Assembly: GCA_949290385.1 (NCBI GenBank)
Contig: CASERY010000015.1
Location: 1-24,208 of the forward strand
Direction: 5' to 3'
DNA: 24,208 nt
Source: an uncultured bacterium
GTDB lineage: Bacteria > Verrucomicrobiota > Lentisphaeria > Victivallales > UBA1829
Part shown: positions 9,888-10,796 of the stretch, one piece after another
How positions within the stretch are numbered: the first letter of the stretch is position 1
How the letters are laid out: every line of letters begins with the position of its first letter
Notes under the pieces: generated by a model
Database searches by the model: none
Seen by the model: only the letters and a program-made list of their open reading frames with translations
What the model was told of the DNA's origin: nothing
Program-made: the position numbers and the translations under genes

Positions 9888-10796
9888 TTATATGGTCCCA
9901 TTTCGATGACGGATGGATTTGAGAAACGTGGAGGGAGTAATCCCATATCGGATCTTGAACTGTCTGCGAAAATAATTTACAGAGTTGAAACCACAGGAAT
10001 TGCTGACTTCCTCAATGGTATATATTCCTTCTGCAAGCATTTTATAGGCTATCTAAAGCCTGTGCTGGATCAATATCTCAATTGGAGAACAATTCATAAG
10101 GGCCTTGAAACAGCGTCCAACTTCACTGCGGCTTACATTGGCTGTTCTGGCAAGATCTTTAAGAGAAATATGTCCGTTGTAATGAGTATAAATAAGATCA
10201 AGCATTTTTTGCAGACGTATTTGATTGATAAGTTGAATGCGATTTGATTTATACCGTGGTAAGATATTTATATTTAAATAAATATATTCAAAAATATAAC
10301 TTATATTTCTCTGGATCATCATTTCATAACATGGCGGCTGATTCCGGAAACAATGATAGATATCCTGTATAAGATTATTGATGTTTTTCAAACTTTCATT
10401 TTTATTTGAAAACACAACAAAAGGCAGATCATCACACTGTTGAAAGGGCATAATGTATTTTTTATATATTTGACTTCCTTCCGGAGCAATCAAACTTCCG
10501 GAGAAAACGATATTAGGCAATGGGTCAGCTGTATGACCGGAAATTTGTCTGATCCCGTGAAGTAGATTCCCATTGACAAAAATGCTGTCTCCGGCGTTGA
10601 GAATAATGTGTTTTTCACCGACCTGATAATCCAGGGTTTCGCTTTCTGCTGTTGCAATCTCAAATCCGGGATGCCAATGCAAAGGACCGTTCCATTGGGG
10701 TAAATTTGCCAACTCATCATGAAAGAATGAAATCGGAAAGGTCGTGGAATTGTAAGGAATTCGCTCTTTCAGTTGATAATCCATAGCTACAGACAT
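9888..10796 (-). CDS. AraC-family regulator (cupin N-domain plus double HTH) interrupted by one in-frame TAG at codon 248 (10053-10055)
   Basis: The tracked ORF 10053..10796 ends ...CSPIEILIQHRL-TAG. The same frame continues IAYKMLAEGIYTIEEVSNSCGFNSVNYFRRQFKIRYGITPSTFLKSIRHRNGTI-TAA, which is the second AraC HTH signature (GF.S..YF.R.FK...G.TP). There is no frameshift. The + strand ORF 9906..10247 is its antisense shadow. Confidence 0.85.

Follow-up and report, generated by a model that had tools for sequence, protein, structure and literature searches.

What does an in-frame stop codon mean when the gene behind it carries on undamaged? The question is raised by an AraC/XylS-family regulator gene on the minus strand of the 24,208-nucleotide (nt) contig CASERY010000015.1 (assembly GCA_949290385.1), from a Victivallales (Lentisphaerota) gut bacterium. 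The contig was analysed over its whole length and is called the window below; all coordinates are positions in it unless another contig is named. Under the standard bacterial code, the frame of this gene is interrupted by a TAG at codon 248, with 247 codons before the triplet (10055..10053) and 54 after it, and it contains no other stop and no frameshift. An earlier reading of the window by a model (the original prediction) had taken this to mean either very recent inactivation or read-through. Here we report that seven genes of this species each contain a single in-frame TAG, and we consider it probable that the species decodes UAG as sense, or reads through it efficiently, with the AraC TAG as one instance of this behaviour rather than a lesion specific to one gene.

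The AraC regulator gene across its TAG

Read through the TAG, the gene has the parts expected of its family, which is a large one (1115 matches at E<1e-10). The N-terminal ligand-binding and dimerisation domain is recognised by a Cupin_2 match of 27.9 bits, just above the cut-off of 27.2, while AraC_binding falls below its own cut-off. At the C-terminal end, the TAG had been placed between the two helix-turn-helix (HTH) motifs, with the second motif preserved in a frame that continues for 54 codons to the TAA at 9888-9890, and this is borne out by HTH_AraC matches on either side of the TAG (residues 205-242 and 260-292), the second of which reaches E=1.1e-9 in the downstream part alone. In the hidden Markov model alignment, the Pfam profile HTH_18 runs without a break over the TAG (residues 215-293, E=2e-19), as expected of a DNA-binding domain of about 100 residues with two HTH motifs, and the downstream part is free of further lesions up to the TAA, just as the original prediction had said. 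The C-terminal region also aligns with the DNA-binding domains of AdpA, Rns and GadX, and by alignment to the AdpA domain (3w6v) the TAG falls in the long helix that joins the two HTH subdomains, where the frame reads ...LIQHRL-TAG-IAYKMLAEGIYTIEEVSNSCGFNSVNYFRRQFKIRYGITPSTF... on the minus strand.

The nearest full-length orthologues have 302 amino acids (aa) and are 80-86% identical. The column of the TAG, which had been expected to hold a polar residue, is Gln in 20 of 21 close orthologues and in 111 of 119 homologues, and its codon is CAG or CAA in all seven relatives (Victivallales/Lentisphaeria genomes), several of which terminate their own AraC gene at TAG. An intact AraC allele above 86% identity was absent from a collection of 5.8 billion proteins, and the exact 247-aa product is recorded in other metagenome assemblies. 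We rejected a split gene with re-initiation, as no ribosome-binding site precedes the ATG at 10040.

One TAG in each of seven genes

The neighbour of the regulator is interrupted in the same way. The AraC gene and an MFS_1 transporter gene are adjacent in all relatives while the genes that flank them differ, which marks the pair as a self-contained regulator-transporter cassette. The TAG of the transporter lies in its first transmembrane helix (TM1), in a column that holds Ser in 102 and Thr in 17 of 119 homologues and that is encoded by TCG or TCA in relatives; the orthologues have 396 aa and are 88-90% identical. A restart after this TAG was rejected, since the product would lose TM1, and the 364-aa MFS product of the window itself matched nothing when looked up. 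The third TAG was found when we checked an open reading frame (ORF) that appeared without its Rossmann N-terminus, in an NAD-dependent epimerase/dehydratase-like gene. The ATG 24 codons ahead of it has a good ribosome-binding site, the Epimerase domain (residues 7-72) extends across it, and its column is Ala in 114 of 119 homologues, the nearest orthologue having GCG, which is two base changes away.

Beyond the window, contigs of the same species that overlap it (99.5% identical where measured) add ~9.5 kb on the left and 2.8 kb on the right. Here gene callers have split four more genes: RNase Y (77+399 aa), ComM/YifB (152+344), a regulator with a GntR-HTH and a periplasmic-binding domain (GntR/PBP; 225+193) and YjeF/Nnr (376+135). 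In each of the four, both pieces are in the same frame and exactly one TAG separates them. The domains RNase_Y_N (residues 6-197 of RNase Y) and Peripla_BP_1 (224-369 of GntR/PBP) extend across the TAG, and so do the structural alignments of ComM with 8rxd (6-506) and of Nnr with 2ax3 (134-503). Of the four, RNase Y, ComM and Nnr are cellular genes with broad conservation. The seven sites are thus 10053, 9663 and 13990 in the window, 4479, 8717 and 1264 in contig L025, and 2721 in contig L028.

Together these sequences make up a catalogue of 36.5 kb with 24 confident genes and 8664 codons. Seven of the 24 genes (AraC, MFS, epimerase-like, RNase Y, ComM, GntR/PBP and Nnr) have one in-frame TAG, at a density of ~0.8 TAG per 1000 codons, and in the reference sequences of all 24 we found no internal TGA, no internal TAA and no frameshift. 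Such repeated in-frame use of one stop codon, with homology on both sides of it, is what a reassignment would leave behind. The genes end in TGA (12), TAA (11) and, in a single case, TAG. Six further genes with one TAG each, and no internal stop or frameshift of another kind, favour the read-through half of the original prediction, as decoding of UAG throughout the species, and argue against its other half, taken as a single recently inactivated AraC gene, which we rejected.

In relatives, the same kind of survey gave no genuine in-frame TAG in ~58 long ORFs (~110 kb), against 7 of 24 genes here (P=9e-5); candidates in the relatives L006, L013 and L014 were rejected as antisense or junk frames. 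Relatives at 83-90% identity have the sense codons CAG, TCG, GCG and CAG at TAG sites. The orthologues come from Victivallis, Victivallales and Lentisphaeria genomes, and both synteny and gene content are bacterial and chromosomal. Were TAGs to become fixed like missense changes, 3.5-10 of them would be expected from 1042 one-step neighbour codons, 0.1-0.2 substitutions per site and a ratio of non-synonymous to synonymous rates (omega) of 0.10-0.15; the observed number is 7.

The TAGs are also stable features of the species. The AraC TAG recurs in six other independent metagenome assemblies at ~99.5% DNA identity, which makes it a real allele of the species-level population and not an error. 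The AraC and MFS TAGs are each present in 7 of 7 covering sequences and the epimerase-like TAG in L001, L021 and L022, so that all three are fixed: no covering strain assembly lacks them, across several studies and assemblers. Sequencing or assembly error was rejected for this reason. Intact alleles of these three genes above 90% identity are missing among the 5.8 billion proteins.

Selection on the interrupted genes

A comparison of selection before and after the AraC TAG had been proposed as a way to judge the gene. Against orthologues, omega is 0.10-0.20 on either side of the TAG, the same value as between intact orthologues; there is no relaxation, a result that alone does not separate inactivation from read-through. 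Within the species, single-nucleotide polymorphisms (SNPs) were counted on strains retrieved through neighbouring genes and not via the 247-aa product. The three interrupted genes of the window have 10 non-synonymous and 13 synonymous SNPs, a proportion below the neutral one (P=0.0003-0.02) and not different from that of the flanking genes (12:25, P=0.42). Changes at conserved columns are not in excess, numbering 0 of 100 in AraC, 2 of 257 in MFS and 4 of 126 in the epimerase-like gene. The relaxed selection of a unitary pseudogene is therefore not seen in omega, in conserved columns or in polymorphism, within the limited power of these tests.

We rejected a mutational hot spot as the source of the TAGs, be it 5-methylcytosine in CCAGG or a mutator acting from G:C to T:A. 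Their sequence contexts are not the right ones, the changes from the precursor codons are of more than one type (C to T, C to A, GC to TA), and the strain SNPs consist of 51 transitions and 7 transversions.

How UAG might be decoded

Most likely, in our view, the AraC gene yields a functional regulator of 302 residues with one UAG-encoded residue at position 248, and the other genes with a TAG, the MFS transporter and no fewer than five more, are most likely intact in the same sense. In the mechanism that we propose, a tRNA with a CUA anticodon would read UAG, and release factor 1 (RF1) would have been lost, weakened or outcompeted. The change would be recent, younger than the divergence from relatives whose proteins are 83-90% identical, and later TAGs would have accumulated as ordinary missense changes from the neighbouring codons CAG, TCG and GCG. 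The decoder could be a Ser, Ala or Gln tRNA with a mutated anticodon, or an acquired pyrrolysine (Pyl) system.

Nothing at the sites themselves points to local control. Folding of 90 nt on the 3' side of the seven TAGs was unremarkable (z-scores of -1.4 to +0.8), and no motif is shared around the seven apart from a purine after the TAG in six of them. With neither a downstream structure nor a shared motif, decoding appears to be context-free, and a site-specific recoding element in cis of the SECIS/PYLIS type was rejected on the same grounds. We note in passing that two of the sites share a preceding Arg-Leu(CTT)-TAG and that two share GCT-TAG.

As to the amino acid, the columns in the window are joined by that of GntR/PBP, where three of the four LacI-family homologues with solved structures (all distant) have Ala, and by that of RNase Y, with Gln (CAG) in the closest relative and Asn, Thr and Ser further out; the TAGs of Nnr and ComM fall at variable loop positions. 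A joint fit by substitution matrix gives log2-odds of 4.45 for Ser, 2.95 for Ala and 2.23 for Gln, with bulky residues far behind, and no residue other than Ser is acceptable throughout the six columns. This suggests, and does no more than suggest, that the inserted residue is small or polar, with Ser fitting best, then Ala, then Gln. Seryl- and alanyl-tRNA synthetases do not read the anticodon, so Ser or Ala suppressors would be easy to evolve.

Alternative explanations

Several observations weigh against decoding of UAG as sense, and some of them would suit dead genes better. Foremost, the columns disagree on the residue: Gln in AraC, Ser/Thr in MFS, Ala in the epimerase-like gene, Ala in GntR/PBP and Gln in RNase Y. 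Three of the disagreeing columns are 93-100% conserved, which is unlike an established reassignment and like nonsense mutations, so that the one consistent amino acid by which a reassignment is usually recognised is not found. One of the 24 genes, flotillin/Band_7-like, still ends in TAG (with a TGA 10 codons on), against 5 of 58 in relatives, both small numbers. With TAG counted as sense, a crude estimate of coding density still comes to 0.81, lower than the 0.83-0.96 of relatives. In MFS codons 8-10, strain L019 (Logan ERR14721045) shows a run of eight A where the window has seven (~9706-9712), which could be either a real +1 frameshift or a homopolymer error of assembly. The lineage-specific ratio of non-synonymous to synonymous changes in MFS is slightly raised (14:17 against 37:86 pooled, P=0.14), and the four deviations at 126 conserved columns of the epimerase-like gene exceed the mean of 1.5. 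The four TAGs outside the window are each known from one assembly. Finally, the 36.5 kb of the genome that were reachable contain only tRNA-Pro(CGG) and tRNA-Gly(GCC) as tRNAs, and neither prfA nor pyl genes.

The alternative that fares best is that of independent pseudogenes, which has the lineage losing genes, UAG terminating as usual, each of the seven genes inactivated by its own TAG nonsense mutation, and AraC reduced to a 247-residue fragment without the second HTH. We think this unlikely. It would account for the conserved columns that differ in their amino acid, and it draws on the low coding density, the possible MFS frameshift in L019 and the slightly raised MFS ratio. AraC does have a premature stop where its orthologues have a sense codon, TAG serves the clade as an ordinary stop, and for most TAGs with a known precursor (CAG, TCG, CAG) a single base change suffices, in keeping with nonsense mutation. 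Prokaryotic genes that are intact but for an in-frame stop are, moreover, known to occur at a low level (PMC7918605). Pseudogenes, however, should collect TGA, TAA and frameshifts too, and here the lesions are biased in type: all seven internal stops are TAG, which under random nonsense has a probability of 6e-4 to 1e-2, depending on transition bias. The TAG of the epimerase-like gene required two base changes from GCG. As many as 29% of the genes would be dead, RNase Y, ComM and Nnr included, while constraint is relaxed neither in polymorphism nor at conserved columns. Dead genes in the longest gene-free stretches were rejected too, as six-frame translations of these gave no Pfam match. We also rejected the idea that the AraC-MFS cassette was lost as a whole, perhaps adaptively, for it leaves the TAGs in five unrelated genes unexplained.

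A second possibility concerns the identity of the decoder. In Genetic Code 34, described by Kivenson et al. in some methanogenic archaea, all TAG codons stand for pyrrolysine, and the code is hard to detect because coding density barely changes (10.1101/2024.09.30.615893). A bacterial counterpart, with pylTSBCD present and pyrrolysine at every UAG, would make sense of an inconsistent aligned residue, as is expected of a 21st or 22nd amino acid, and the pattern is that seen in archaea: ordinary genes, no tie to a residue, TAA/TGA terminators, short extensions and a sporadic recent origin (10.1101/2024.09.30.615893). In the category scheme of Code 34, our cases are seven of Category 1, one short extension and none of Category 4 (no large out-of-frame overlaps). 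We nevertheless give this counterpart only a small chance. In two of the columns, within packed helices, Ala is tightly conserved, and a third, within a transmembrane helix, has Ser/Thr; at these positions a small residue scores far better than a Lys-like or bulky one. No Pyl or methylamine methyltransferase genes lie in the 36.5 kb, we found no literature report of pyrrolysine in Lentisphaerota, and the code is stated to be confined to archaea so far (10.1101/2024.09.30.615893).

Slightly less credible still is an ambiguous or leaky UAG, at which RF1 mostly terminates and a minor fraction of full-length product is made, so that the genes with a TAG, AraC among them, would be hypomorphs that a small population tolerates. 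Reassignment by way of ambiguous intermediates is an accepted scenario (10.1101/2024.09.30.615893; PMC8629427), the origin is recent, one gene still terminates at TAG, and conserved columns with discordant residues are what slightly deleterious changes would produce. Against this stands the cost of running seven genes, including RNase Y, at a few percent of their output, together with near-normal constraint in polymorphism and the fixation of the TAGs in all strains. A technical artefact, whether from sequencing, assembly or contamination by a TAG-recoded phage or eukaryote, is very improbable: contamination and pseudogenes do yield false stop reassignments in code screens (PMC8629427), but the same TAGs appear across different studies and assemblers, content and synteny are those of a bacterial chromosome with Victivallales orthologues 83-90% identical, and the in-frame stops are only TAG and never TAA, unlike in ciliate codes.

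The cassette and its surroundings

The features of the window are collected in Table 1.

Table 1. Genes, domains, in-frame TAG codons and a conserved upstream block in the window
Feature	Position	Strand	Remarks
ComM/YifB Mg-chelatase-like gene, 3' end	2..280	plus	its TAG just upstream of the window (L025 8717-8719)
Flotillin/Band_7-like gene	1426..3153	plus	only TAG standard-code terminator among 24 genes, 3121-3123
MFS_1 transporter gene, AraC cassette partner	8544..9734	minus	396 codons with TAG as sense
In-frame TAG, MFS codon 24 (TM1)	9663..9665	minus	ancestral TCG/TCA (Ser)
Conserved block upstream of MFS	9778..9840	minus	alignment of 7 species; candidate AraC operator and promoter
AraC/XylS-family regulator gene	9888..10796	minus	ATG 10796 to TAA 9890..9888; 302 codons with TAG as sense
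AraC second HTH motif, residues 260-292	9921..10019	minus	downstream of TAG; HTH_AraC E=1.1e-9, 54-aa part alone
In-frame TAG, AraC codon 248	10053..10055	minus	ancestral codon CAG (Gln)
AraC first HTH motif, residues 205-242	10071..10184	minus	HTH_AraC match on 247-aa part
AraC cupin-type ligand-binding domain, residues 34-85	10542..10697	minus	Cupin_2 E=1.9e-6; AraC_binding weak
NAD-dependent epimerase/dehydratase-like gene	13918..14925	plus	335 codons with TAG as sense
In-frame TAG, epimerase-like codon 25	13990..13992	plus	

The block upstream of MFS (minus strand) includes a direct repeat, conserved and with a period of 21 bp (TAGTGCTTG at 9834-9826 and TACTGCTTTG at 9813-9804), a -35-like TTGATG (9806-9801), which the proximal copy of the repeat abuts, and an extended -10-like TGATATTGT (9786-9778). 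The repeat is a plausible candidate for an AraC-type activator site. Close by, in the leader or -10 region of MFS, lies an 18-bp tandem duplication, GATATTGTATTTAAATCT followed by GACATCGTATTTAAATCA (9750-9785, minus strand), with 3 mismatches between its copies; all strains of the species have it, whereas the sequence is single-copy in 6 relatives, and we rejected it as a conserved operator because it is a lineage-specific duplication. The tRNA-Pro(CGG) beside the cassette was considered as an odd tRNA and found to be ordinary.

Read through its terminal TAG, the flotillin/Band_7-like gene would gain 10 residues (the TAG position and 9 codons) before the TGA at 3151-3153. The same gene contains about four tandem 66-nt (22-aa) repeats, RRIAVKQAEAAALSGEAEADKQ, at ~2095-2417 on the plus strand, with several strain SNPs inside them. 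Long intergenic regions (0.5-0.8 kb) occur at 10797-11514, 7750-8543, 20435-20976 and 23514-24096, the first of them with no Pfam match in four of six reading frames.

Further observations concern other parts of the region. A 46-aa ORF with a Symport_access Pfam match in the 20431-20571 region (L026 6747-6887) overlaps the start of a sodium:solute symporter gene by 4 nt, and by its domain match it encodes a predicted small accessory subunit. A ceramidase-like gene (L002/L020 5130-6485) is called with 451 aa in L002 and with 475 aa in the window and in L001, probably through the choice of start codon. In L025, a 61-aa ORF and a 5-FTHF cyclo-ligase gene are preceded by a 1.5-kb AT-rich stretch (1940-3443, 38% GC; some 7.6-6.1 kb left of the window start), in which no ORF, Pfam remnant, tRNA or Rfam match was found. 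In some bacteria, 6S RNA occupies such a position by the 5-FTHF cyclo-ligase gene.

Significance and comparison with known systems

Genome-wide reassignment of UAG has been described only in eukaryotes, in phages and recently, as Code 34, in archaea. From screening more than 250,000 genomes, Shulgina and Eddy state that every stop reassignment known from bacteria concerns UGA (PMC8629427), and we found no report of UAG recoding for Lentisphaerota. Decoding of UAG as sense in this species would therefore constitute a new bacterial code, the first for UAG in a bacterial chromosome, and would show in nature a code change at its transition stage. On balance we favour the still stronger claim, with somewhat less assurance than decoding itself, that this is the first bacterium with a genome-wide UAG stop-to-sense reassignment, caught very early; the early stage is suggested by the species-level extent of the change, the low density of TAGs, the inconsistent residues and the one TAG terminator left. 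So recent an origin would allow the change of the tRNA, the fate of RF1 and the rate and sites of new TAGs to be studied directly. There is a practical side as well. Standard gene callers fragment about a quarter of the genes (AraC 247 aa, MFS 364 aa, epimerase-like 309 aa, RNase Y 77+399 aa) and the fragments are already in public protein databases, so annotation, pseudogene counts and metabolic reconstructions for the lineage are likely to be wrong.

Among known systems, an ordinary nonsense pseudogene of AraC would resemble our starting point, in which the frame stops earlier than in orthologues and the second HTH would be lost; it differs from what we find in that constraint is not relaxed, further lesions are missing and the same lesion occurs in six other genes. 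The in-frame stops reported from prokaryotes are scattered, of all three kinds and under weak constraint (PMC7918605), whereas here TAG is exclusive and a quarter of the genes is affected. Laboratory amber suppressors (supD for Ser, supE for Gln, supF for Tyr) and RF1-deleted E. coli share with the proposed system a CUA-anticodon tRNA and tolerance of in-frame ambers, but they involve single marker mutations, and here a natural population has many in-frame TAGs fixed.

The bacterial UGA codes 4 and 25 (Mycoplasmatales, Absconditabacteria/Gracilibacteria and others) likewise turn one stop into sense genome-wide and likewise show up as split genes. They concern RF2, unlike a UAG code, which would concern RF1, and they are old, clade-wide and consistent in their residue, where the present case is species-level and inconsistent. 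Gut phages that recode TAG to Gln (code 15 type; Ivanova 2014; Borges et al. 10.1101/2021.08.26.457843) read UAG by a suppressor tRNA, and two of the four known ancestral codons here are CAG; unlike theirs, our sites lie on a chromosome (with RNase Y, Nnr, ComM, Fur, DHQase, transporters and regulators), and the other columns are Ser/Thr and Ala. The nearest parallel in pattern is Code 34 of the archaea, in which internal TAGs are likewise spread over ordinary and housekeeping genes that callers split, with no residue tie and with TAA/TGA as terminators, and which is also recent, restricted in lineage and in need of no local RNA signal. The two part ways in the host, which is bacterial here and archaeal there, and in the columns, which in our case favour a small or polar standard residue.

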